From IMG/VR virus record IMGVR_UViG_3300017909_004140, positions 32,001 through 96,000 of that record: DNA of 64,000 bases; one strand, 5' to 3'. The DNA comes from a virus. Taxonomy: Duplodnaviria; Caudoviricetes. The position numbers and the translations under genes were made by a program. The notes beneath the pieces are model-generated. The model worked only from the letters and a program-made list of their open reading frames with translations. It made no database searches and was not told where the DNA came from. This document shows positions 19,871-61,387 of this stretch, piece by piece (within the stretch, counting starts at the first letter, position 1; every line of letters begins with the position of its first letter).

Positions 19871-19927
19871 TATGTAACCTTTCATCTCATAAAAATACAC
19901 TTAATAGTTTTCTATTAAGTGTTAATA

Positions 19928-20386
19928 GTTGTGGCCCGTTCTGTTGCTAGGTGGTGCCATACCCCATTAGACTATGCCGCTAAGGGCATATCCATAGGTG
20001 CAAAATTATCGTTTGCAATTGTTTTATTCTTGCGGTTAAGGTCGCTTGCGCACCTGTCTCTCGATTTGATTTTTATTGAGTCTGTCGATCCTATTTCGCC
20101 CCCATCATAAAAGCACGCGTATCAAACAAAATTGCTCATAGTTTTCTTCAAATCCTGTTTCATAATCTGCAAGAGGAGCTCCATTACTTCCAGAAACCCA
20201 GAGTCTTCTGAAATATCCGTCATAGGAATCTTCTACTTGCTGAGGAGTTACTTTACGAAGGTCTCCCTTAACCATATAGTAAACTCTACATTTTTCTTTG
20301 AATGTTACCATGCGTTTATGGTGGAGGCGCCGGGTACCGCCCCCGGGTCCAGTCCGCCTATTCTATCTCTTCTCAAACGAGACAAT
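19928..20386 (-). ncRNA. ssrA: Permuted two-piece tmRNA: acceptor piece ~20386-20319, intervening segment 20318-20104, coding piece 20103-~19928
   Basis: GGACCCGGGGGCGGTACCCGGCGCCTCCACCA precedes GGGGGCGAAATAGGATCGAC. Acceptor stem GGGGGCG/CGCCTCC has G3:U70. Tag frame 20016-19972 reads ANDNFAPMDMPLAA*. Outer ends are approximate. Confidence 0.93.
20105..20311 (-). CDS. 68-aa hypothetical protein inside the tmRNA intervening segment
   Basis: ATG 7 nt after the CCA end; TGA ends 1 nt before the mature 5' G. Confidence 0.65.
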   Translation of the reverse strand: MVTFKEKCRVYYMVKGDLRKVTPQQVEDSYDGYFRRLWVSGSNGAPLADYETGFEENYEQFCLIRVLL

Positions 20387-20737
20387 TTATTCCTTGAAAA
20401 ATAGCTCTAGTTCGTCTAATATCCAAGTACTAATTTCTAAAGTACCAAATAATATAATTAGCATAAAAGGCACTATTATAAATAAAAATATAGTTAGCAC
20501 TATTTTTTGCCAGCGATTACATTTTTCTACATAAAAATGAGCAAATAGTCTTAATCCGGCTTTAATTTTTTCTTTTAACCAATCTCCGAAGAAATTACGA
20601 AAAAGTCGCATTACTATTAATATAGGAGAAGTTATAACATCCCATACAAGTAATACTACGTCTACTATTAGATCAATAATATGATCTATTGTAAACCAGT
20701 TTTTTATTCTGTTTTTGAAATTATTTTTGTAAACCAA
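20387..20737 (-). CDS. Hypothetical membrane protein
   Basis: Two hydrophobic segments. Confidence 0.6.
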   Translation of the reverse strand: MVYKNNFKNRIKNWFTIDHIIDLIVDVVLLVWDVITSPILIVMRLFRNFFGDWLKEKIKAGLRLFAHFYVEKCNRWQKIVLTIFLFIIVPFMLIILFGTLEISTWILDELELFFKE

Positions 20738-21448: not shown

Positions 21449-21599
21449 ATTCGCTCTTGCCTATATGATAAGTTTTTGTTATTATATATTTAATGAGTTT
21501 TCTCTCTTTATTTTTAACTCAAATCTTAAATCATTATAGTATATTGATAACTAGCTGTCAATAACTTTCTTGATTAAAACAAAAAATACGCTTTTATCG

Positions 21600-21628
21600 T
21601 TGCTAGAAGCTTAAAAACAATATATAAT
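21600..21628 (+). promoter_or_regulatory. Sigma70-type promoter for the rightward operon
   Basis: TTGCTA-17-TATAAT. Confidence 0.65.
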
Positions 21629-21644
21629 AGGATTATAAAATAAA

Positions 21645-21836
21645 ATGTCAAAGTATTTAGAAGCAAAAACATACTTCAGAGATTTATCTAATAAAGGTAT
21701 AGCACAAGCAGATGAATTATTTGAAGAAGCAGAACAAATTAGAAGCTCATTGGGAGATATAGCATATGCCCATTTTATTATGAATTGCTATGACGATCTT
21801 TTCAATGTTCAATTACCGAATATCAAAAATAATTAG
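21645..21836 (+). CDS. Hypothetical protein
   Basis: ORF track; follows the promoter. Confidence 0.55.
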   Translation: MSKYLEAKTYFRDLSNKGIAQADELFEEAEQIRSSLGDIAYAHFIMNCYDDLFNVQLPNIKNN

Positions 21837-21845
21837 AGTAAATAA

Positions 21846-25394: not shown

Positions 25395-25561
25395 CTATAT
25401 CTTGGCATAACCCATGCCTAAAAAGTGGTAGCGTCGGGGAGAGACCCGAGGTATTGCTTTCCTCAAGCAAATATATAAATAAATAGGCCTGTGACATCTT
25501 GTCGCAGAGCCTATTTGCGCGTGTGCGTGTTTAACTAAATAATAATTTTTGCGAGGTAAAA

Positions 25562-25723
25562 ATGCTTAATAAACTAAAAGAACTTATGTCACTTAGTACA
25601 TACACATACAAAGATGACCTTAAAACTTGGGCACAATTAGAATATGGAAAAGACTGGAGATTTGCCTACAATTTTTTGGTAGATAATAACGGAAAACCGC
25701 CTAGAAAAGGAGAACACTACTAA
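25562..25723 (+). CDS. 53-aa hypothetical protein (not in ORF track)
   Basis: GAGGT SD; ...WAQLEYGKDWRFAY... Confidence 0.6.
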   Translation: MLNKLKELMSLSTYTYKDDLKTWAQLEYGKDWRFAYNFLVDNNGKPPRKGEHY

Positions 25724-25724
25724 C

Positions 25725-25877
25725 ATGAACAACCTACTACAAACACTGAAAAACATTTTTAAACCTAGAAACCATTTACATATGTTAATGATAGAAAAAT
25801 ACTTAGCAGAATCAACAGATTTAGTTGATTTAGAGCAAAGACAACAACAACTTGCAAGGAAAGGAATTTGGCTATGA
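25725..25877 (+). CDS. DUF3563-like small protein (not in ORF track)
   Basis: EKYLAESTDLVDLEQRQQQL; AGGAG SD; ATGA overlap with the next gene. Confidence 0.65.
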   Translation: MNNLLQTLKNIFKPRNHLHMLMIEKYLAESTDLVDLEQRQQQLARKGIWL

Positions 25878-26074
25878 CTACACTAGTATGGAATACTACA
25901 TGTGCTTTTTGTGAAGCTGTTGCACACTATTTAAACCTTTTTATTAAAAAAAGTAACAGCTTTTTCATTTCCGTAGGGTATGCTCGCGCAGCTTCACATT
26001 TAGCTGCTCAAGGATATCATAAAGAAGCTAAAGAACTTATGATGTATAAAAAAGAGGAGATCTCAAAACTATGA
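25874..26074 (+). CDS. Small hypothetical protein
   Basis: GYARAASHLAAQGYHKEAKELM; translationally coupled to both neighbours. Confidence 0.6.
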   Translation: MTTLVWNTTCAFCEAVAHYLNLFIKKSNSFFISVGYARAASHLAAQGYHKEAKELMMYKKEEISKL

Positions 26075-48739: not shown

Positions 48740-48816
48740 GGTTGCGTAGCTCAACAGGATAGAGCAACGGCCTTCTAAGCCGTAGGTTGAGGGTTCGAGT
48801 CCTTCCGCAATCGCCA
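48740..48816 (+). tRNA. tRNA-Arg(TCT)
   Basis: GGTTGCG/CGCAATC acceptor, anticodon arm ACGGC-CT-TCT-AA-GCCGT, GGTTCGAGTCC T arm, encoded CCA. Confidence 0.96.
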
Positions 48817-48818
48817 AT

Positions 48819-48893
48819 GCGGGTATAGTATAACGGCTATTACTACAGCCTTCCAAGCTGAAGATCGGAGTTCGATTCTCCGTACCCGCTCCA
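48819..48893 (+). tRNA. tRNA-Gly(TCC)
   Basis: GCGGGTA/TACCCGC acceptor, CAGC-CT-TCC-AA-GCTG, GTTCGATT T loop, encoded CCA. Confidence 0.95.
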
Positions 48894-52410: not shown

Positions 52411-55271
52411 TGGCAACACCTACTACTGGTGAAATTTCCATCTCAGATTTACAAAATTTATACTCCCCTGTTCGTACAGCTCCTGGAAAACTTGGAGACT
52501 ATCATGCAGGAGGCTCTGTTGTAGCTTCAGGAGAGAAGCTAAGCGGAGGCGCAGGAGCTGCTATTCCTACAGCTCCTAGTGAACTTAGTTTATCAGATTT
52601 TTACGATCTTCGTGCTACTGTTCATGGCGCTGCTTTAACGGCCTCTACGGCTGCTTCAGTATTTGACGGCATTGATGTTTCGTGGACGGCTAGTGGTAAT
52701 GGTGAGTCTGCTGACAGTTGGCAAATTGGATGGAGACCTTCTCCGTCTACAGATGCTTATACCTACCTATCTACTGATTATCAGGGAAACCCTATCACTT
52801 CAACTAGTGCAACTGTTACTATTCCTTCTACTCCAGGTGCTACTCTACATGATTTAGTGGTTCGAGGAATAAATGCTTTTGGAACAGGAGTTGATTCTAG
52901 TCCTCAAACAGCCTATAAAAAAGCTCCTACTGCTGATTATCTTTATGATACTCCTGTAAGCTCTACTGTTGGAAGTATTGCAGGACAAGGTATTAGTACT
53001 GTTCATGTGTATGCTGCCGTTGGTGCTGGTGGGGCAACAGGTCCTTATTTCTTTACAGGCGGTGATGGCCCTGGAGCTGGTGAAAGTCCTTTTTCTGCTG
53101 ATGGAGGTATGTGGTGGTGGCCTCACTATACTTATCAAGTAGATATGGCAGGTGCCGGAGGTGGAGGCTCTGGAGGTATTGGATATAGAGCTACTTCGAT
53201 TCCTGTTACCCCTTCTACTCCTGTTAGTATTACAGTAGGACAATCAACCTCTGGTACTGGCGGCACTACAACTGTCAATATTGGAGGTACAAACTATGTA
53301 GTAGCTAATGGAGGGGCAGTTGGTGGTCGAGGTGGATTAATTACAGGAGGTAGTCCAGGAACTCCTGCTGGATTACCCTCTACATATATCCCAACCTCTC
53401 CAATCGAAGCAATTACAAGCGGTCCAAAAACTGAAGCTAATTTTATGCAAAAAGGATACTTTTATTATAATCCTCCATCAAATAATTGGTATCCTCCTAC
53501 TAATAACCCGACTGTCTCACAATCAGAAGCAGAACAGCATTTCGATCGCGCAGCTACTGCTCTTCGTTGGGGTGTTGCAGGAGATGGTGGTGCAGCTGGA
53601 GGAATTCCTACTGGAACGACTGCTCAAAGTCCTACTCATACAAATTCTGGTGCTGGATATGCGGGCGTTAATGTAGAACACAATAGACCAATTACTGCGT
53701 GGCCAAATACTTTTGGTCAAATGCACGGTGCTGGAGGTGTCGGTTATACTATTACAGTTCCTAATACTGATACGGTACCTGGACTTCCTGGAAATGTTCC
53801 TTTAAACGGCCCAGCATATCCTGGCTCAGGATCTCTTACAGTTAACGTGGGATATGGCAGTAGTTGGAAATCTACTGCATTTCCTGCTCCTTATGGCAAA
53901 GTTTATCAAGATGGAACAGGACATCCTGGAACCACAAGTATCCCTGGTCACGTAGCCTTTTCTGATACCCCAACTGCTCAAATGACAAGTCCTACGTATG
54001 TTGATGAAGCAGGAGATGGGTTTGTTTGGGTTCGTTTTAATGATGCTCCTGGATCTATTTCAGCAACTTCATACTCAGAGTATTCATCCCCAACATGGCC
54101 TACACAACATAAGGCCAATGGAACATCAGTTCCTAGTGATGGAATTAACTATTTTGGTAGAGGACCTGCATTAGTAGGTCCAGCTCCAGGAAGCGGTCCT
54201 TACTCTCCGATTGGTATACCTGCTGGAACAGCGTTTGCACCAAATCATCAAGAACCAATCAGTGGTACCGGTCAGGGAGCGACTATAGGAGGAGGAGCTT
54301 CGTTAACACCCTCTCCAGGCCATGTAAATAAAACTCAAAAAGTTACTTATTTTCCTCTTATTTCCTCTTCAGGTGTTACAGTCGATCCTGGTACATTAGG
54401 ACAAACACAAGCATATACTAATCACGCAGTAACAATATCTCCTGATAATACTAATAAAGCATACTCAGCAGGTGGATACGGACTGTATGTACCTGGCTCT
54501 ACAGATGAAGGTATGCAGACAGCTATTTCACGTTTTGAGTTTCCTTCTACTTCAATCACTTCTTCTGTTACCACGCTTAGTACTGGTAGAGCTTCTCATA
54601 CAGGATTCTCACTTGGAGTTAGCAATAGAGGATATGTAGGAGGTGGATGGACTAGTGGACTTACAGGACCGCAGGCTGCTGTTAATACTATGGAAGCATT
54701 TATCTTCCCATCAGAAACAACTGCTGCAGAGCCAAATAATATTGGAACTGCTCGTATGCATTCAGCTTCTGCAGCTAGTATGGACTATGGATATACAATT
54801 TCTGGAAAAACTACTTTTCCTATTCCTGCTACCACAGGAACAGATGAAATAACTAGATTTGCTGGAGCTTCTGGCTCTACCACAATTTCTGTATCAGATT
54901 TAGGAGAGTTTCCATCTTCAGGAGCAATACTTGCTTGGAGTACTTTAGGGTATATTATGACCTCTGATGCTGAACAAACTGGTTTTTCAACTGTTGCTCT
55001 TGCTAGTAATAATAGATCAGTAAACTATGGAGAACACCGTGATAAGTGGTTTGGAACGCTAAGAAATAATGGATTTTTTCCACAAGCACCGAACGCTACG
55101 GTAGCTGGAACTGCTGTATCAGGTAGAGCTCACGGCTTCTTGCTAACAGCTCCTGGTAGAATTGAAAAGTTTCCTTTCTCTTCTGGTGTTTATGCAGTTG
55201 ATTCTACTCAAGAACTAAGTCCTACCTCTAGTACCTATGGATATGGGTACGGAGCACCTGGAGTTGGTTGA
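52410..55271 (+). CDS. Large Gly-rich adhesin-like virion protein with FN3-like and KFPF-repeat regions
   Basis: PTTGEISISDL...LSLSDFY N-terminus, VSWTA...VRGINAFGTG, GAGGGGSGG blocks, C-terminal IEKFPFSS. Confidence 0.7.
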   Translation: MATPTTGEISISDLQNLYSPVRTAPGKLGDYHAGGSVVASGEKLSGGAGAAIPTAPSELSLSDFYDLRATVHGAALTASTAASVFDGIDVSWTASGNGESADSWQIGWRPSPSTDAYTYLSTDYQGNPITSTSATVTIPSTPGATLHDLVVRGINAFGTGVDSSPQTAYKKAPTADYLYDTPVSSTVGSIAGQGISTVHVYAAVGAGGATGPYFFTGGDGPGAGESPFSADGGMWWWPHYTYQVDMAGAGGGGSGGIGYRATSIPVTPSTPVSITVGQSTSGTGGTTTVNIGGTNYVVANGGAVGGRGGLITGGSPGTPAGLPSTYIPTSPIEAITSGPKTEANFMQKGYFYYNPPSNNWYPPTNNPTVSQSEAEQHFDRAATALRWGVAGDGGAAGGIPTGTTAQSPTHTNSGAGYAGVNVEHNRPITAWPNTFGQMHGAGGVGYTITVPNTDTVPGLPGNVPLNGPAYPGSGSLTVNVGYGSSWKSTAFPAPYGKVYQDGTGHPGTTSIPGHVAFSDTPTAQMTSPTYVDEAGDGFVWVRFNDAPGSISATSYSEYSSPTWPTQHKANGTSVPSDGINYFGRGPALVGPAPGSGPYSPIGIPAGTAFAPNHQEPISGTGQGATIGGGASLTPSPGHVNKTQKVTYFPLISSSGVTVDPGTLGQTQAYTNHAVTISPDNTNKAYSAGGYGLYVPGSTDEGMQTAISRFEFPSTSITSSVTTLSTGRASHTGFSLGVSNRGYVGGGWTSGLTGPQAAVNTMEAFIFPSETTAAEPNNIGTARMHSASAASMDYGYTISGKTTFPIPATTGTDEITRFAGASGSTTISVSDLGEFPSSGAILAWSTLGYIMTSDAEQTGFSTVALASNNRSVNYGEHRDKWFGTLRNNGFFPQAPNATVAGTAVSGRAHGFLLTAPGRIEKFPFSSGVYAVDSTQELSPTSSTYGYGYGAPGVG

Positions 55272-55426
55272 TGAACACATTAAAAGAAGATATTAAAGAA
55301 ATAAAAGATAAGTTATTGAGAATAGAAACAGAAACTCAATCGCTAAAACAATCACTAGAACACTTGTACAATTTACTTGACCAACTTAAAGGAAAGGAGG
55401 GGAATGATGATAACGAGACTACCTAG
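55271..55426 (+). CDS. 51-aa coiled-coil protein (not in ORF track)
   Basis: MNTLKEDIKEIKDKLLRIETETQSLKQSLEHL...; TGATG coupling. Confidence 0.55.
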   Translation: MNTLKEDIKEIKDKLLRIETETQSLKQSLEHLYNLLDQLKGKEGNDDNETT

Positions 55427-55904
55427 TGTAATATTTAAAATTAGAGAAGACGGAGAGTGGGTTGATAGAAGCTCTGATGAAATGTTTGTCGGAACTAACG
55501 TAATGTTTGCACTTCCTGGTGCATTTACACCTACTTGTTCATCTACTCATTTACCACAGTTTGACTTACTATATGATGAGTTTAAAGGACATGGCATAAG
55601 TAATATCTACTGCTTGTCTGTTAACGACTCGTATGTAATGAATGCTTGGGCAAAAGAACTTGGAATCACTAATATTAAAATGATTCCAGACGGAACGGGC
55701 GATTTTACTCGTCAAATGGGTATGTTAGTAAATAAAGCAGACAAAGGATTTGGCTATCGTTCTTGGAGATATGCCTTAGTAACTGAAGGCATGGAAATCA
55801 AGAAAGCTCTTATTGAGTCAGATAGGAGTGATAACACCACTGATGATCCTTTTGAGGTTTCAAGCGCTACTAGCGTATTAAACTATCTAAGAGAGTGTGC
55901 ATGA
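55404..55904 (+). CDS. Peroxiredoxin (Prx5 type)
   Basis: LPGAFTPTCSSTHLP, SVND.YVMNAW, RSWRY. Confidence 0.93.
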   Translation: MMITRLPSVIFKIREDGEWVDRSSDEMFVGTNVMFALPGAFTPTCSSTHLPQFDLLYDEFKGHGISNIYCLSVNDSYVMNAWAKELGITNIKMIPDGTGDFTRQMGMLVNKADKGFGYRSWRYALVTEGMEIKKALIESDRSDNTTDDPFEVSSATSVLNYLRECA

Positions 55905-56713
55905 GCGTTCAGTCTAAAAAAGATAGAAAAAACATCAAAAAGCTATTAAAACTAGTAATTAATAGAGGTCTTGACGACCTCTATTTTTTTGAGCCAAAGG
56001 AGAAATTTATGCCAAAGAGAAATACTCAATTTAAAGTAGTTAATTCAGAACTTGCAACAATTAGACCTAGCAAGAAACTGTACATTGAGGCAAAGAATGA
56101 AAGACAGCAAAGATATATTGATCTAATGAACGATCTTCATACTCATGTTATAGTTGCTACAGGTCCAAGTGGAACAGGTAAAACACTACTAGCAGTATCA
56201 AAAGGAGCAGAAGAGTTTAATGATAATCATTTTGATAAGATTGTGATCACTCGACCTGCTGTGTCAGTAGATGAGGAGCATGGATACCTACCAGGAGACA
56301 TACTAGAAAAGATGGATCCTTGGATGAAACCAATTACTGATATACTGTCAAGCTACTTTTCTAAACAACAACTTGAGTATCTAATGAGAGAGGAGAAGAT
56401 TGAAGTAGCTCCTCTAGCATATATGCGAGGACGTACTTTTAAACACTGTTGGGTAATTGCAGATGAAATGCAAAACGCAACACGCGAGCAGGTAAAAATG
56501 CTACTAACGCGTTTAGGAGAAGGTTCTAAGTTTATCCTTACTGGAGATCTTGATCAACATGATAATGGATATGAAGAAAATGGACTAGCACACTTTATGG
56601 ATCGTCTTGTGCATCATGGCGCAACAGACTATATTAAGTATGTTGAGTTTACTTCAGCAGATATTGAGCGACATCCTGTAGTACGCGAGGTGTTAGAAAT
56701 CTATCAAGATTAA
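55895..56713 (+). CDS. phoH: PhoH-family ATPase (start may be 56009)
   Basis: GPSGTGKT, RPAV, GYLPG, PLAYMRGRTF, DEMQN, LTRLG, GDLDQ, RHPVV. Confidence 0.95.
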   Translation: MCMSVQSKKDRKNIKKLLKLVINRGLDDLYFFEPKEKFMPKRNTQFKVVNSELATIRPSKKLYIEAKNERQQRYIDLMNDLHTHVIVATGPSGTGKTLLAVSKGAEEFNDNHFDKIVITRPAVSVDEEHGYLPGDILEKMDPWMKPITDILSSYFSKQQLEYLMREEKIEVAPLAYMRGRTFKHCWVIADEMQNATREQVKMLLTRLGEGSKFILTGDLDQHDNGYEENGLAHFMDRLVHHGATDYIKYVEFTSADIERHPVVREVLEIYQD

Positions 56714-56745
56714 CTGTCTAACTACAATTTATAATAAATTTTGCA

Positions 56746-56795
56746 TTGCTCAATCCTTAAAAATTTTATAATATATATTTATTGATTGAGTGAGA
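56746..56795 (+). promoter_or_regulatory. T5-like promoter P1
   Basis: TTGCTC-17-TAATAT, then ATTGATTGAGTGAG. Confidence 0.65.
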
Positions 56796-57015
56796 AGGCT
56801 AACGGCATCACTCTGAGCTCGCGACGGTAGGAATGCCTGCTCTTAGCTGTAAGCAAAACATCAATCGTGCTTGTACCAGACGAAAGGTACAGCGTCATGT
56901 GACAACGAGAACAGTCACCGCGTATAGGCCACAAGACTGAGTTTAGACGTCTAACAAACCGTGCTCAAATCTTAATGCCTGGGGAGGCGCGAGATACCTC
57001 CCCATCAATTTTTTT
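56781..57015 (+). ncRNA. Candidate structured ncRNA 1 (~230 nt)
   Basis: No ORF; hairpins GAGTGA/TCACTC, TGTACC/GGTACA, GTGAC/GTCAC; ends in TGGGGAGG/CCTCCCCA stem plus T-run. Confidence 0.6.
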
Positions 57016-57016
57016 G

Positions 57017-57064
57017 TTGCTTATTGCTTAAATTTTTTATATACTGTTTATAGAAGTTGAGAGG
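57017..57064 (+). promoter_or_regulatory. T5-like promoter P2
   Basis: TTGCTT-17-TATACT, then ATAGAAGTTGAGAGG. Confidence 0.75.
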
Positions 57065-57220
57065 ATAACCTTCTAGAAAAAACCTCTTCTAAAGTCTCTG
57101 GGCGAGTGCTACGAGTAAGGAAAGCAAGCAAGCCAACGATGCGATCTGTATGAGGCAGTGAGCTAGGCACTTAAAACTTAACCTTCGCTAGTACAGAAAC
57201 TACTCTCGCCTGTGATTTTA
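57050..57220 (+). ncRNA. Candidate structured ncRNA 2 (~165 nt)
   Basis: AGAGG/CCTCT hairpin, then nested GGCGAG/CTCGCC, TCTGTA/TACAGA, AGTG/CACT. Confidence 0.55.
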
Positions 57221-57223
57221 TAG

Positions 57224-57275
57224 TTGCTAGATCGTTAAAAATTTAGTATTATATATTTATAGAAATTGAGAGAGG
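57224..57275 (+). promoter_or_regulatory. T5-like promoter P3
   Basis: TTGCTA-17-TATTAT, then ATAGAAATTGAGAGAGG. Confidence 0.75.
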
Positions 57276-58290
57276 CATCATCCTCTGGGCTTCGGTTCTC
57301 CGCTTCGGCGCGCTTGAACAAAGTGAAAGTTAAAATCCAGTTAATGATGCAACGGAGTCACGGAATCGGTCTCAGCCTCTTTCTCTCATGGCGCTGAACG
57401 TATTTTGTTCTGGCCGCCAGCAAGTCCTGGTCTGATAGTTCAGATAAGAGCAATTATAGCCACCAGGCAGTTATATGAGTAGTTTCGGTAAGGATAACCT
57501 ACTTTAAAAAACCTACCTCAAAGTGTGAACAAGTCTAGATTGAACACACTTTGGTTAGCACTGAGAGTTTCGGCTGTCAGTTCCGCGCCGTTGGCTGTAA
57601 AGCTTGATCAGGCGGATTCTTGTCGTGAGATGCAATTCACGAGTCGGGGAGGAGCTATGCATTGCGCACCTCAAGGTAACTGGCGAGGTTGGTGGCGGTT
57701 ACACTTTTACTCAGGCTGGACAGGCTAGCGTGTGTCCTATGTCACAAATCTTTCGAGAGGTCGGAGTAAATTATAGACTTACATTGTTGAGTCACTGAAC
57801 AGTTGAAGAATGAAGGGCAACTGAATTTTGGAAGCTGATCACACCTCAGCGCTTGCGTTGAGCATACTTTAGCAGTGTAGGGGAGAAGCGACGGCTTTTC
57901 CAGCTCTCCGAGGGGGAGATGCAGTAGAAACAAGGTCTATAGCGTTTCGTGACTGCAACCTTATTACGGTTAGCTCGTTTGGGGGGGCTTATACAGTCGA
58001 GTAGACAGACTTCATCCACCTGTCGTCTCCTGTATAGAGATGGTACGAGCGATTAAGCGGCGGGCGAGGTGCTGGCTTAATATTTTGAATTGAACTGGAC
58101 GCTAACTCCAGCCGAAGCTTAGGCTTGTAAAGTTAGCAGAGCTAGGTAAGCTGTTACTCATGTGAGGCCTTGCCGCTGAATTAGATTCGGGCGAAAGACA
58201 GCGCAACAAAAAGGAGAATCTAGAAAACTTGGGCAACCAGCTTTCTAGGAGTAACTGGGCGTAACCTCGTGTTGCGCCCTTTTGCCTTTT
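57259..58290 (+). ncRNA. Candidate large (~1 kb) structured ncRNA or ncRNA polycistron
   Basis: More GC-rich than flanks, no credible ORF, many hairpins including two C(UUCG)G loops, long-range pairing, bounded by promoter P3 and a terminator. Confidence 0.7.
58257..58290 (+). terminator. Intrinsic terminator
   Basis: GGGCGTAAC-ctcgt-GTTGCGCCC-TTTT. Confidence 0.8.
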
Positions 58291-58320
58291 AGCAAAATAT
58301 AAATTTAGGCAATTTTATAC

Positions 58321-58370
58321 TTGCACGGCGTGGAGATTTTTGGTAATATATAATTAACAAATTGAGGAGA
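58321..58370 (+). promoter_or_regulatory. T5-like promoter P4
   Basis: TTGCAC-17-TAATAT, then AACAAATTGAGGAG. Confidence 0.65.
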
Positions 58371-58448
58371 CGCACATTCTGCGGATCTCAACGCCAATTC
58401 AAAATTACTATACGTAAATGGAGTCTTGGCAGAAACACGTCTCCTCAC
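58356..58448 (+). ncRNA. Candidate small structured RNA or leader 4 (~90 nt)
   Basis: Perfect 10-bp closing stem TGAGGAGACG/CGTCTCCTCA enclosing CGCA/TGCG and GCCAA/TTGGC stems. Confidence 0.5.
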
Positions 58449-58456
58449 CTATCATC

Positions 58457-58714
58457 ATGGAGAAGCAGTTGTATTTAGTACGACGCACACTTAAAGGTCA
58501 TGAGGTCTCATCTTGGGGCGAATCTAGCGAACCGCTGGCAGTCTATCATGTAGGCGCTCGCTGTTCCTGTCCTAGTTATCGCAAGCCTTGCAAGCATCAG
58601 CGAATGGTAAAGAAGCATATCTCACTATCTGAGCCTCCAGGACAAGTCTACGATATCTCGCCCGCGAACCGCGTGATCGCACTACACTCTCTTCTAGAAT
58701 CTAGCACTTCTTAG
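58457..58714 (+). CDS. SWIM-type Zn-finger protein
   Basis: YHV...CSCPSYRKPCKH; start moved downstream of the RNA stem. Confidence 0.65.
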   Translation: MEKQLYLVRRTLKGHEVSSWGESSEPLAVYHVGARCSCPSYRKPCKHQRMVKKHISLSEPPGQVYDISPANRVIALHSLLESSTS

Positions 58715-58791
58715 ATATAAGAATTCAACTTTTGACAATTGGTCAAATTCATGTTACTTTATAGGAGAGAAAAAAAAGAAACGGAGTTTCA

Positions 58792-58899
58792 ATGCGCAGG
58801 CGAAAACGCCAAGAGATCTATGCGGCTCAGTTAAAAGTATTGTTTTTAGTATCACCACTTGCCGCTACAATTGCTCTTATGTATTCTATATTTCACTGA
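58792..58899 (+). CDS. 35-aa membrane peptide (not in ORF track)
   Basis: MRRRKRQEIYAAQLKVLFLVSPLAATIALMYSIFH; GGAG SD; promoter TTGACA-17-TACTTT. Confidence 0.5.
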   Translation: MRRRKRQEIYAAQLKVLFLVSPLAATIALMYSIFH

Positions 58900-59044
58900 G
58901 TTTGCATACTGAGTGATGAAATCACTACTAGTGTCACGCCACCCGTGCGCCTACATTTTAGGCTTGCTATGCGGTGGCTTTTTTGTTATAATTAATAATA
59001 ATCGGAGGGCAGCGCTCGCACGGAGTGCGACAGAGGAGGTGAGA

Positions 59045-59278
59045 ATGAGACGAGCAATACAAAATGGTAATTGGATTTCATTTTATGAAAACAACAAACT
59101 AGTTGGCAGAGTTGATTACTCAGAACGAGCACAGGTCTATAGAGATAAAGCTTGTCATAATTGGACTAGTGGTGTATTACAACCAGAAACTGTTTTAATG
59201 TTTGCAGATGAACAACTTGAGTTTGATTTTGATGTTCATCAAGGTGGCGTAGAAAACTGGGCTAAGTATAATGCCTAG
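59045..59278 (+). CDS. Hypothetical protein
   Basis: GAGGAGG SD before ATG 59045; promoter TTGCTA-17-TATAAT near 58964. Confidence 0.6.
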   Translation: MRRAIQNGNWISFYENNKLVGRVDYSERAQVYRDKACHNWTSGVLQPETVLMFADEQLEFDFDVHQGGVENWAKYNA

Positions 59279-59501
59279 GCGAACAAACGCTGGTCATATT
59301 ATTCCTGAGTCTTCTGAACATTCTAGAGCGACTCTTTGGAACGCTAAAGAGAAGTTTGAGGTACACTCGGAAACTTCGTTTCCTTGTCCTGATGACAGTC
59401 ATCCTCTTTTTACAATTAGAGTTTCAAAGCAACAGCCTACCGCAACCTGTTATTATTGTAGCAAAACTTGGATACTAAATTTAGATGTTAAAGAAGACTG
59501 A
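59271..59501 (+). CDS. zf-CHCC-like zinc-finger protein
   Basis: CPDDSHP...CYYC. Confidence 0.6.
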   Translation: MPRRTNAGHIIPESSEHSRATLWNAKEKFEVHSETSFPCPDDSHPLFTIRVSKQQPTATCYYCSKTWILNLDVKED

Positions 59502-59769
59502 GGTATATAAGCTATTTGATGATCTATCAGTGGAACCAGATACTACTATTCTATCTGCGGCTTATGGTGTTCGAGACTCTATACCTTTTAGAGTAGAAGA
59601 GTGGTCTTGGGATGGTATACAAGGTAAAACAATAGTTTTACACTCTGAACACTGCCCTGCGCTAGTAATTACAGAAGAAGATCTTAAAAAGAAGTTTGAT
59701 GTTGAAGGCAGCACTACTTTTAGAAAAACAGGGCAATACTATTTTTTGAACTATGACTTCTCTATTTAA
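59485..59769 (+). CDS. Hypothetical protein
   Basis: ORF track; overlapping operon. Confidence 0.55.
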   Translation: MLKKTEVYKLFDDLSVEPDTTILSAAYGVRDSIPFRVEEWSWDGIQGKTIVLHSEHCPALVITEEDLKKKFDVEGSTTFRKTGQYYFLNYDFSI

Positions 59770-60232
59770 AGGCACAGCAAACGCTGAACAACTATTTATA
59801 TTAACCTATGCTGAGTTAGATAAGCATCAGATTGTTAATAAAATTTCTCGTGACGAAACCTGGTATCGAGAAAGGCATGAAGGATGGACCTACATTCTCA
59901 ATAAACTGATAAACAGTTTTAATGCAGAAGGCATGAAATATCCTATCTGCATTATGTTTAAAGAGGGTAGCTATAATTGTTGTCATGGAGGACAACGACT
60001 AGCTGCAGCAATGAAATCAAATCTTACTACAGTACCTTGTATTATTGCATGGAGAAATTATGATATCGACAAAATTCCAGCTGACTCCCACTTCATTTCT
60101 GATTTACGAGAATTGGATTCTCTTAATCACGGTGATGTTGAGCGTATACATCTGAGTGGTGGCGGGTTCGAGATTTTAGTTAAGGATAGAAAGCATTGGG
60201 ATCCAAATGACTATATGGACAAAACTACTTAG
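59753..60232 (+). CDS. ParB/Srx-like domain protein
   Basis: LINSFNAEGMKYPI...HGGQRLAAA...VPCII. Confidence 0.65.
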   Translation: MTSLFKGTANAEQLFILTYAELDKHQIVNKISRDETWYRERHEGWTYILNKLINSFNAEGMKYPICIMFKEGSYNCCHGGQRLAAAMKSNLTTVPCIIAWRNYDIDKIPADSHFISDLRELDSLNHGDVERIHLSGGGFEILVKDRKHWDPNDYMDKTT

Positions 60233-60554
60233 TACAGTAGCAGCTACAGTGTTGCTATCGAACTCTGCTCTAGCTGAACTAGAGTGGAGACAGAAGCCTG
60301 TACAGTGTGGTCCTAAAGATAGTTTTTTGAACCTAATACTACAGGCTGATGAAATAGCACTAATGGCAGGGCTAGGACAAATAAAAGTACAAGGTTCTTA
60401 TTATCGTGTTCCGATCTATATTTTTGCTAATACAGAGACAGGCACTTTTACTATTGCAGAGATGCATATTGAGAATGATGAAATTTGTGTTTTAGCTTTT
60501 GGAGCCAACACAACTTTTGATGTAGAAACTCCTAACTTAACAGAGAGATGGTAA
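60207..60554 (+). CDS. Secreted hypothetical protein
   Basis: Signal peptide; KPVQCG...TGTFTI.E...CVLAFG. Confidence 0.6.
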   Translation: MTIWTKLLSTVAATVLLSNSALAELEWRQKPVQCGPKDSFLNLILQADEIALMAGLGQIKVQGSYYRVPIYIFANTETGTFTIAEMHIENDEICVLAFGANTTFDVETPNLTERW

Positions 60555-60727
60555 TGGAAAAATTTAACAAACGCCCCTTGAGGTTTGATTCTACTCCTAA
60601 CTCTCCTATTTTACAGGAGATGCGCAAACCTCAACTAATGCTGGTGAAGTATAATGACTATGGAGTACGTAAGTTGAAAAAAAGACTTAAAGACGCAGAA
60701 GAGTATAGTAAAAGAAAGTTTCGTTAA
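60554..60727 (+). CDS. 57-aa basic protein (not in ORF track)
   Basis: Fills the gap; TAATG coupling. Confidence 0.5.
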   Translation: MEKFNKRPLRFDSTPNSPILQEMRKPQLMLVKYNDYGVRKLKKRLKDAEEYSKRKFR

Positions 60728-61387
60728 ATGAATATTTACATCGGTTATGATCCAAAATACCCTAAAGTGTACGAAGCCTGCACTAATTCTATTTTTAGAA
60801 GCACTAACAGTCCTTCTTTCTACACTGTAACTCCTCTTGATCAACAAAAACTAAGAGACTCTAAAGTTTACTGGAGAGAAGAAGATGATAGAGCTTCTAC
60901 TCCTTTTTCGCTTACTCGTTTTTTAGTTCCTCTATTGAACGGATATAATGGATGGGCGCTATACTGCGATAGCGACTTTATATTCTTAGATGATATTAGC
61001 AATCTACTTGCTCTAAAAGATGATACTAAAGCAGTGATGGTAGTGCAACACGACTATGAACCAAAACTTGGTTTTAAAATGAACAGAAAGGTTAATCATA
61101 CATATAGACGAAAGAATTGGTCTTCTCTTATGTTGTTTAACTGTTCTCATATTGCCTGTAAAGGATTAACTCCAGAGATAGTTAATGGTTTTGATCCTGC
61201 TGATTTACACCAGCTTGCTTGGTGCGATGAACATGAGATAGGAGAGTTACCAACAAAATGGAATCATCTTGTGGGATACTATGATGATCCTAATCCTAGC
61301 GCAATTCATTTTACTGATGGAGGTCCGTGGTTATTAGGATATGAGAATGAACCTTTCGCAGATAAATGGAGAGAATATTGCTCATAG
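60728..61387 (+). CDS. GT8-like glycosyltransferase
   Basis: IYIGYD, STPFSLTRFLVP, YCDSDF, RKNWSSLMLFN, WNHLVG, HFTDGGPW. Confidence 0.85.
   Translation: MNIYIGYDPKYPKVYEACTNSIFRSTNSPSFYTVTPLDQQKLRDSKVYWREEDDRASTPFSLTRFLVPLLNGYNGWALYCDSDFIFLDDISNLLALKDDTKAVMVVQHDYEPKLGFKMNRKVNHTYRRKNWSSLMLFNCSHIACKGLTPEIVNGFDPADLHQLAWCDEHEIGELPTKWNHLVGYYDDPNPSAIHFTDGGPWLLGYENEPFADKWREYCS

Follow-up and report, generated by a model that had tools for sequence, protein, structure and literature searches.

A conserved phage island of structured RNAs preceded by putative T5 N25-type promoters

An island of 1.7 kb without a credible protein gene lies in the genome of an uncultured marine phage known from IMG/VR virus record IMGVR_UViG_3300017909_004140 (107,337 bp, ~91% complete), between the phoH gene (55895-56713) and an open reading frame (ORF) for an 85-residue SWIM-finger protein (58457-58714). 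Coordinates refer to the analysed stretch of 64 kb, bases 32001-96000 of the record, hereafter called the window. A sequence-only reading of the window had proposed a dedicated locus of phage RNAs here. N25-type promoters, conserved covarying structures and RNA contigs from four studies support this proposal, and the promoters of these non-coding RNAs should be strong, judging by their sequence. It is probably a stable-RNA island of the manA/wcaG kind whose products act in trans through invariant loops.

Promoters and coding capacity of the island

The interval 56714-58417, 1704 nucleotides (nt) long, is the longest in the whole genome free of ORFs at a cut-off of at least 70 amino acids, the runners-up being 701, 676 and 639 nt, and the ORFs of 30-67 amino acids within the island are in no case full length in four relatives (L002, L003, L033 and L023). 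The claim that no credible gene is present is borne out by both observations, and a conserved coding signal in the short ORFs, which had been named beforehand as evidence to the contrary, was looked for in the relatives and not found. As had also been noted, the tracts are richer in GC (0.47-0.49) than the flanks (0.36-0.39), and none of them is a tRNA: neither ARAGORN nor Rfam detects one in the region. Two tRNAs lie at 48740-48893 of the window, and none is found less than 8 kb from the island.

Four promoters starting at 56746, 57017, 57224 and 58321 share a common plan (-35 element TTGCxx, 17-bp spacer, -10 element TAnnxT and TTGAG at about +8), in agreement with the four similar promoters recognized earlier. 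P1 (56746-56774, plus strand; TTGCTC and TAATAT, predicted start A56781) belongs to repeat family D1 and, like P2 (57017-57045, plus strand; TTGCTT and TATACT, predicted start A57052), is kept in relatives. P3 (57224-57252, plus strand; TTGCTA and TATTAT, predicted start A57259) has TTGAGAGAGG at +8, and P4 (58321-58349, plus strand; TTGCAC and TAATAT) is again conserved in relatives. The pattern TTGC-N15-19-TANNAT-N8-16-TTGAG has three matches in the 64-kb window, all of them in the island; shuffled sequence gives an expectation of 0.32, with three or more matches in 0 of 100 shuffles.

The promoter PN25 of phage T5 consists of TTGCTT, 17 bp, TATAAT and AGATTC, followed by ATAAATTTGAGAGAGGAG (PMC4447248), and P3 of TTGCTA, 17 bp, TATTAT and ATATTT, followed by ATAGAAATTGAGAGAGGC. 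Direct comparison revealed that the 10-mer TTGAGAGAGG is identical in both, at +7 of PN25 and +8 of P3 (PMC4447248). With these elements, an A/T-tract spacer and an A/T-rich start in common, the island promoters are, by sequence, sigma70 promoters of the T5 N25 type. The likeness is one of promoter sequence only: the T5 promoter drives protein genes, whereas the transcribed TTGAG of the island also forms the 5' strand of closing helices (helix P1 of RNA3a, and RNA4). Similar promoters with TGAG or TGAA instead of the full TTGAG stand before protein genes at window positions 21457(+), 21561(-), 3893(-), 2070(-) and 64047(+). Since it corresponds to the initial transcribed sequence of N25-type promoters and also occurs before protein genes elsewhere, the shared 5' purine run is a promoter feature first, and in RNA3a and RNA4 a strand of the closing helix as well.

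Conserved RNA units and their relatives

Relatives were collected by a phoH-based search and two motif scans, those from metagenomes being found via the motif of module B (described below). The island is conserved in about a dozen related contigs of marine phages. In a close clade the whole locus is kept 3' of phoH; this clade comprises L030 (99% identical), L009 and L035 (95%) and, at 70-88% identity, L002/L020/L033/L023/L027 and L003/L004/L022/L025/L026/L028. In a distant clade (L021, L024, L029, L031, L032, L034, L036 and L037) few ORFs match the window genome, those at 30-57% amino-acid identity, and RNA units are scattered among protein genes; recognizable there are RNA3a, the body of RNA2, the pseudoknot module, the 5' hairpin of RNA3d and the 3' half of RNA3b. 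Compared with L002 and L003, the RNA segments of the window show 69-88% nucleotide identity, with many indels whose lengths are not divisible by three and insertions of 50-130 nt, while the genes flanking the island are 68-81% identical. Four more distant phoH phages (L005-L008) have neither an ORF-free gap by phoH nor a copy of RNA3a, which is not evidence either way, and BLAST of 1.76 kb against 50,697 phage records gave no match. Two sets of candidate loci were discarded: the loose motif AGGATAACCTNCT..AAAAACC picked up five extra loci in IMG/VR that have no other similarity and are due to chance, and the only match of CGCTGAATTAGATTCGGG among genome contigs, taken as chance as well, lies in a stretch of a Mariniblastus metagenome-assembled genome that looks protein-coding by eye.

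Structures were predicted with RNAalifold on MAFFT alignments, and pairs changed on both sides were counted against shuffled and slid controls. Helices with compensatory changes beyond these controls, together with the lack of a conserved frame, characterize the units as structured non-coding RNAs, RNA4 being the exception. Counted in this way, covariation, which the sequence-only reading had proposed to look for, came out in favour of RNA1, RNA2 and RNA3b, where both-side changes exceed both kinds of control, and of RNA3a in cell-level measures only.

RNA1 (56781-57015, plus strand, ~230 nt) ends in an intrinsic terminator with a stem at 56981-56987/56997-57003 and a T run at 57009-57015, which was read from the sequence and is conserved in relatives. 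Together with a second one, found by a scan at 58257-58279 plus T run, it accounts for the two clear terminators mentioned earlier. In alignment A6 (7 sequences, 56781-57012), 94% of cells are paired and 11 of 54 pairs have changed on both sides (shuffled mean 7.2, with 11 reached in 2 of 500 shuffles; slid 0-3). The pairing GAGTGA/TCACTC proposed for this unit exists in the window and is not conserved; relatives support GYGAG/CUCGC instead. A boxA-like UGCUCUUA at 56840-56847 was likewise rejected, as it is not conserved in relatives.

RNA2 (57052-57222, plus strand) starts with module A (57052-57090) and continues as a long helix closed by AAAGUC/GAUUUU. Its alignment A7 (57050-57222; 10 sequences from both clades) has 97% paired cells, and both partners have changed in 14 of 36 pairs (shuffled mean 9.5, 2/500; slid 0-2), and the suggested AGAGG/CCTCT pairing is present and maintained by compensatory changes.

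The transcript expected from P3 opens with RNA3a, a motif of ~130 nt (57259-57388, plus strand) in which helix P1 joins 5' UGAGAGAGGC with 3' GCCUC..UCUCUCA, P2 is GCAUCAU/AUGAUGC, and P3 is CUGG/CCAG around a variable hairpin. In alignment A3 (57258-57400; 11 distinct sequences) 96% of cells are paired, and helices P2 and P3 show compensatory changes; covariation of P1 was read by eye. Counted by pairs, 5 of 15 changed on both sides against a shuffled mean of 4.3 (243/500, not significant; slid 0-1), whereas counted by cells the both-side changes number 18, compared with 7.1 in shuffles (0/500). The predicted pairing of TGAGAGAGGC with GCCTCT..CTCTCA is present and kept up by compensatory changes in relatives. 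The RNA3a model, R1, finds one copy per genome, and in the distant clade RNA3a stands alone as a unit (for example at L024:5994-6122), where it abuts a convergent gene.

A conserved domain with ..AAGUCCUGGUCUGAU..CCAGGCAGUU follows (57389-57476, plus strand; alignment A2), which is 80-84% identical to L002 and L003 and is flanked in relatives by insertions of 60-130 nt on either side. Beyond module B, the interval 57505-57960 (plus strand, ~455 nt), comprising RNA3b and the start of RNA3c, is the source of the RNA contigs of highest depth and has a folding z score of -2.15. For RNA3b (alignment A5, 57505-57790; 6 distinct sequences), 93% of cells are paired, and in 23 of 63 pairs both partners have changed (shuffled mean 10.9, 0/500; slid 3-6). 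A hairpin, GAGAAGCGACGGCUUUUC (57883-57901, plus strand; alignments A2 and A9), occupies the site at which L002 has the first hairpin of a manA RNA. The 3' part of the unit (57961-58290, plus strand), which holds the remaining RNA3c and RNA3d, contains the invariant hairpin CGCUGAAUUAGAUUCGGGCG, with its loop region at 58175-58189, as well as the terminator at 58257-58279; across alignment A9 (57880-58295; 7 sequences), both partners have changed in 23 of the 91 pairs predicted. An insertion of ~50 nt at 58075-58125 (hairpin CUGGA..UCCAG and GCUUAGGC..) is absent from the 95%-identical L009, a helix in RNA3 having been gained or lost recently.

Two paralogous modules are arranged like an H-type pseudoknot whose linker is A-rich. 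Module A, at the extreme 5' end of RNA2 (57052-57090, plus strand), reads AGAAG-UU-GAGAGG-AUAAC-CUUCU-AGAAAAAA-CCUCUU, and module B (57477-57520, plus strand; repeat family D3) reads (G)AGUAG-UUUC-GGUAAGG-AUAAC-CUACU-UUAAAAAA-CCUACC. Both stems vary in a compensating manner between copies and lineages, and a 29-nt core of module B is invariant in the five sequences of alignment A2; its last strand has an alternative partner in RNA3b, GGGGAGG at 57651-57657. Elsewhere, hairpins combine invariant loops with variable stems. The hairpin at 57675-57702 (plus strand) carries the invariant 11-nt loop CGAGGUUGGUG (57684-57694) on stems that covary fully (GUAACUG/CGGUUAC, GUGACUG/UGGUCAC and GUAUGCUG/CAGCAUAC), and the hairpin of RNA3d (plus strand) carries the invariant loop region GCUGAAUUAGAUUCG (58175-58189) on fully covarying stems (UGCC/GGCG and CACC/GGUG); a further invariant loop of the island is UAAGGAUAAC. 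Invariant loops on covarying stems would be the pattern expected of contact sites for a conserved partner. In the distant clade, the GCUGAAUUAGAUUCG hairpin forms the 5' end of an RNA of ~255 nt, RNA-X, in which it is followed by module B and the body of RNA2, parts that occupy three separate places in the window.

The fourth unit is of another kind. RNA4 (58357-58456, plus strand) has a 10-bp helix between 58363-58372 and 58439-58448, as foreseen in the pairing of TGAGGAGACG with CGTCTCCTCA, and the 106-nt tract that the helix closes (58355-58460) folds with z = -4.8 against shuffles. Its identity to relatives is 82-86%; the only change in its helices turns a G-C pair into G-U, none is compensatory, and the unit is too conserved for a covariation test. 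The ORF that follows is the SWIM ORF in the window and in L003, and an ORF of 144 amino acids in L002. Unit 4 is a structured messenger RNA leader of whichever ORF comes next, not a free RNA; of the four promoters proposed to drive a non-coding RNA each, the fourth leads into a leader instead. The SWIM zinc-finger protein (58457-58714, plus strand; 85 amino acids; Pfam SWIM, E = 4e-4) is the first gene past the island and is kept in relatives. The 144-amino-acid ORF of L002, a relative of 173.5 kb, belongs to no known family and is inserted between RNA4 and the SWIM gene (L002:9074-9508).

RNA libraries and known RNA families

Parts of the island occur in six metatranscriptome runs, and contigs of four of these, from four studies, were aligned over 54000-61000. 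The runs were picked with the island as query, and uncovered parts are not evidence of silence. RNA1 is represented in three studies (56784-57036 in X15, 56830-57001 in X16 and 56841-57003 in X19), the first of these contigs starting 3 nt from the predicted start A56781. RNA3a is covered by 57268-57439 (X15) and 57308-57468 (X16), and the ~455-nt piece by 57511-57789 (X15), 57506-57963 (X16), 57504-57950 (X19) and 57534-57935 (X20); the only RNA contig from the 3' part of the P3 unit is 57926-58076, at low depth. Depths of 540x, 38x, 26x and 19x on 57505-57960 compare with 3-26x on RNA1 and RNA3a, which gives only a rough hint of abundance.

Within unit 3 the contigs break at ~57470/57505 and ~57960. 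Three start between 57504 and 57511, and position 57504 directly adjoins an Illumina adapter in X19, a sign that an RNA may truly end here, in the U/A-rich linker just 3' of the CUACU strand of module B. Because no conserved promoter precedes ~57504, processing is favoured; the ~1-kb P3 transcript apparently does not persist in full length and is cleaved into pieces. The comparison with metatranscriptomes, proposed earlier as a check, yielded contigs on RNA1, RNA3a and 57505-57960, and unit 3 does not appear as one species.

A scan of 56600-58600 against Rfam 15, likewise recommended, found no family at gathering threshold or at E<=10, save chance sub-threshold matches to Lnt (27.7 bits) and STnc170 (13.3 bits), so the island RNAs match no catalogued family, whether tRNA, tmRNA, 6S, RNase P, signal recognition particle RNA, ribozymes, GOLLD, ROOL, HEARO, IMES or any other. 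manA (RF01745, gathering score 55.2 bits) has no match at E<=10 in the island or in the whole genome. In relatives, the manA model matches L024:9942-10109 and L021:11461-11628 at 54.8 bits and L002:8345-8561 at 40.5 bits, in each case within the homologous array. Relatives carry an extra promoter inside unit 3, and in L002 the manA match lies behind this extra N25-type promoter, inside the region corresponding to RNA3 of the window; in L024 it lies between two RNA3b-like domains with no promoter between. L003, L004 and the window have only a hairpin at the site of the first manA hairpin (57883-57901 in the window).

The manA RNA was first proposed as a 5' untranslated region (5'-UTR) riboswitch candidate of marine phages (Weinberg 2010, PMC2864571). 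In cyanophage S-CREM1 it is located between tRNA genes, with wcaG and abiF RNAs near, 2 kb upstream of a peroxiredoxin gene (PMC9964418), and a 2026 preprint describes RNA-only decamers and a 60-mer cage of manA RNAs, in a range of 10- to 60-mers (bioRxiv 10.64898/2026.07.01.735769). Like the manA/wcaG/abiF cluster of T4-like cyanophages, the island consists of orphan, highly structured marine-phage RNAs in a cluster of RNA genes; unlike the cyanophage RNAs, which are embedded among tRNAs, its RNAs have their own sigma70 promoters, by the assignment above. The island is a relative of the manA/wcaG clusters by position and kind, not by sequence. In the genome analysed here, a peroxiredoxin gene upstream of phoH is the only gene with nucleotide-level relatives in cultured phages (pelagiphage HTVC008M and Synechococcus myophages).

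Other known RNAs are less close. GOLLD and ROOL are also large, ornate, phage-carried non-coding RNAs whose function is unknown, whereas the island, which has no Rfam match, is a multi-promoter array of smaller domains rather than one large RNA. Phage T4 makes two abundant small stable RNAs of unknown function, species 1 and 2 (rnaC and rnaD), early in infection from its tRNA region, where they are cut from longer transcripts. The island would share with these the production of phage-encoded stable small RNAs from longer transcripts and differs in that the T4 species lie in a tRNA cluster and owe their release to the enzymes of tRNA processing. In modules A and B the elements follow each other as in pseudoknot PK1 of transfer-messenger RNA (tmRNA): 5' strand of stem 1, 5' strand of stem 2, 3' strand of stem 1, A-rich linker, 3' strand of stem 2 and A-rich tail; in addition, GCUGAAUUAGAUUCG presumably resembles the tmRNA element GCUGAUUCUGGAUUCGAC. 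A tmRNA is nevertheless rejected on account of the missing tRNA-like domain, the absence of a conserved tag frame (indels break the frame) and the lack of ARAGORN and Rfam matches. Likenesses to RNase P, signal recognition particle, 6S and hammerhead RNAs, seen by eye, have no covariance-model support. Searches for RVT_1, TROVE, Cas12f1-like_TNB and Nop gave no match at E<=1 in the 107-kb genome (~91% complete); the cognate proteins of a guide or partner RNA of a retron, of Y RNA/Ro60, of a TnpB/IscB omega RNA or of TIGR-Tas were thus not found, and TIGR-Tas guide hairpins in particular were rejected because no Nop-domain protein is encoded.

Several further observations concern RNA elements outside the island. 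In the distant clade, a second non-coding stretch follows a small ORF resembling sigma region 4 (L024:9770-10400; L021:11270-11740, minus strand) and is ordered as the 3' domain of RNA3b, the manA RNA (54.8 bits) and a second RNA3b-like copy. Two adjacent weak matches to tRNA models (26 and 24 bits) with a T-arm-like GGTTCGATTCC lie at L024:8275-8409, behind an N25-like promoter and upstream of a 210-amino-acid ORF; ARAGORN calls neither, and they look degenerate or tRNA-like. A protein of 544-555 amino acids with sub-threshold B12-binding and radical-SAM matches adjoins the RNA units on the opposite strand (L024:6488-8155, minus strand; L021:12577-14211, plus strand). The window itself contains a phage-encoded permuted two-piece tmRNA of alpha type (19881-20413, minus strand; tag ANDNFAPMDMPLAA), whose acceptor piece, as aligned by Rfam, is set apart from the coding piece by an insertion of ~200 nt; an alphaproteobacterium is a candidate host. 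Further ORF-free gaps are located at 21449-21845 (397 nt) and 25395-26070 (676 nt) of the window and, just beyond it, at genome positions 96014-96652 (639 nt). The first carries the divergent N25-like promoters 21457(+) and 21561(-), and the last opens with the one at window position 64047. Although an Rfam scan of the window at gathering threshold found no family in the gaps 21449-21845 and 25395-26070, these other gaps may have further RNAs inside.

Possible roles of the island RNAs

If the island is a source of stable RNAs acting in trans, as we think probable, P1-P3 would be early promoters read by the sigma70 RNA polymerase of the host, each giving rise to an untranslated, highly folded RNA, and P4 would lead into the next operon via its structured leader. 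The P3 transcript would be cut into pieces of ~57259-57470 and ~57505-57960 and a rarer 3' part, one of the cuts falling in the A/U-rich linker of the conserved hairpin/pseudoknot module. The RNAs would be composed of independently folding domains (RNA3a, the pseudoknot module, the RNA2 helix, the CGAGGUUGGUG hairpin and the GCUGAAUUAGAUUCG hairpin), with the same domains reused in other orders in the second phage clade, and would act in trans, their loops contacting a conserved partner that may be a host or phage protein or RNA, or one another. They may serve as decoys, scaffolds or self-assembling particles. Conservation, covarying structure, promoter type and presence in RNA libraries have been shown for the island; processing, trans action and loop-mediated binding are what we infer.

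Several points weigh against this reading. Singly, RNA1 and RNA2 do not surpass shuffled sequence in folding (z = -1.5 and +0.7); the alignments are small, with 6-11 distinct sequences that represent two or three lineages, and the structures tested were derived from these same alignments, which favours them. The RNA evidence consists of assembled contigs with no DNA-run control, which cannot give true ends or levels; RNA2, RNA4 and most of RNA3d, like the flanking genes, are without contig cover, and the end at 57505 could stem from a weak internal start instead of processing. Moreover, the window has no manA RNA, its link to the manA family being by position only, and no partner protein is evident in the genome.

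It is unlikely that the units together form one ribonucleoprotein or multi-RNA particle, a hetero-oligomer or a homo-oligomer of the manA-cage type in which a phage protein may or may not take part. The invariant loops on covarying stems would suit such a particle, and the manA RNA, reported to form cages (bioRxiv 10.64898/2026.07.01.735769), occurs in the same array of relatives. A 14-nt complementarity between the 3' end of RNA2 (57192-57205) and module B (57477-57490) would also fit, but this trans pairing was rejected: it is without covariation, is absent from the distant clade, is explained by the paralogy of the modules and is close to chance, ~0.25 such matches being expected by our estimate. 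Neither a Ro60, reverse transcriptase, TnpB nor Nop protein is encoded, and in the other clade the units are rearranged or separated by genes.

Quite improbable, in our view, is a set of cis-regulatory leaders or riboswitches that sense a signal and govern read-through into the downstream early operon, from the SWIM gene onward. manA was originally such a candidate (PMC2864571), every unit is oriented towards the operon, and in each relative RNA4 immediately precedes the first ORF, no matter which one it is. However, RNA1 and RNA3 end in strong conserved terminators followed by a full promoter, so that sensing upstream would not be passed on, and the convergent gene that RNA3a abuts in the distant clade likewise speaks against cis regulation. 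A terminator and/or a new promoter follows each of RNA1-3, contrary to what defines a riboswitch or cis-acting leader, which RNA4 resembles in position only, and the RNA contigs are discrete pieces. That the island is instead an element at the DNA level, either a replication origin whose transcripts prime synthesis or form R-loops, or a trap that ties up the host's RNA polymerase, with incidental RNAs, is very improbable: four promoters predicted to be very strong do lie within 1.7 kb, and T7 and T4 origins use promoters for replication initiation, but compensatory changes and 93-97% pairing show selection on RNA structure, cumulative GC skew shows no turn at the island, and the RNA domains are conserved where promoter spacing and neighbours are not.

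Few abundant RNAs in nature are as poorly understood as the orphan structured RNAs of phages, such as manA, wcaG, GOLLD and ROOL. To these the locus adds at least 4-5 uncatalogued folded RNA domains with covariation support, found in natural seawater RNA libraries and each tied to an early promoter type that, going by likeness, would be of textbook strength. The short defined constructs RNA3a, RNA1 and 57505-57960 are suited to structural and binding work. We hold it possible, if doubtful, that these are several new modular classes of phage RNA, made in very large amounts at the onset of infection, that assemble through their invariant loops, with each other or with copies of themselves, into a large RNA-only particle like the manA cage or sequester a conserved host factor; if so, the piece 57505-57960 would be an unrecognized abundant viral RNA of coastal seawater. 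The RNA domains are shuffled among distantly related phages and can swap places with the manA RNA, which speaks for manA-type RNAs being free-standing products in these phages and not 5'-UTR switches.

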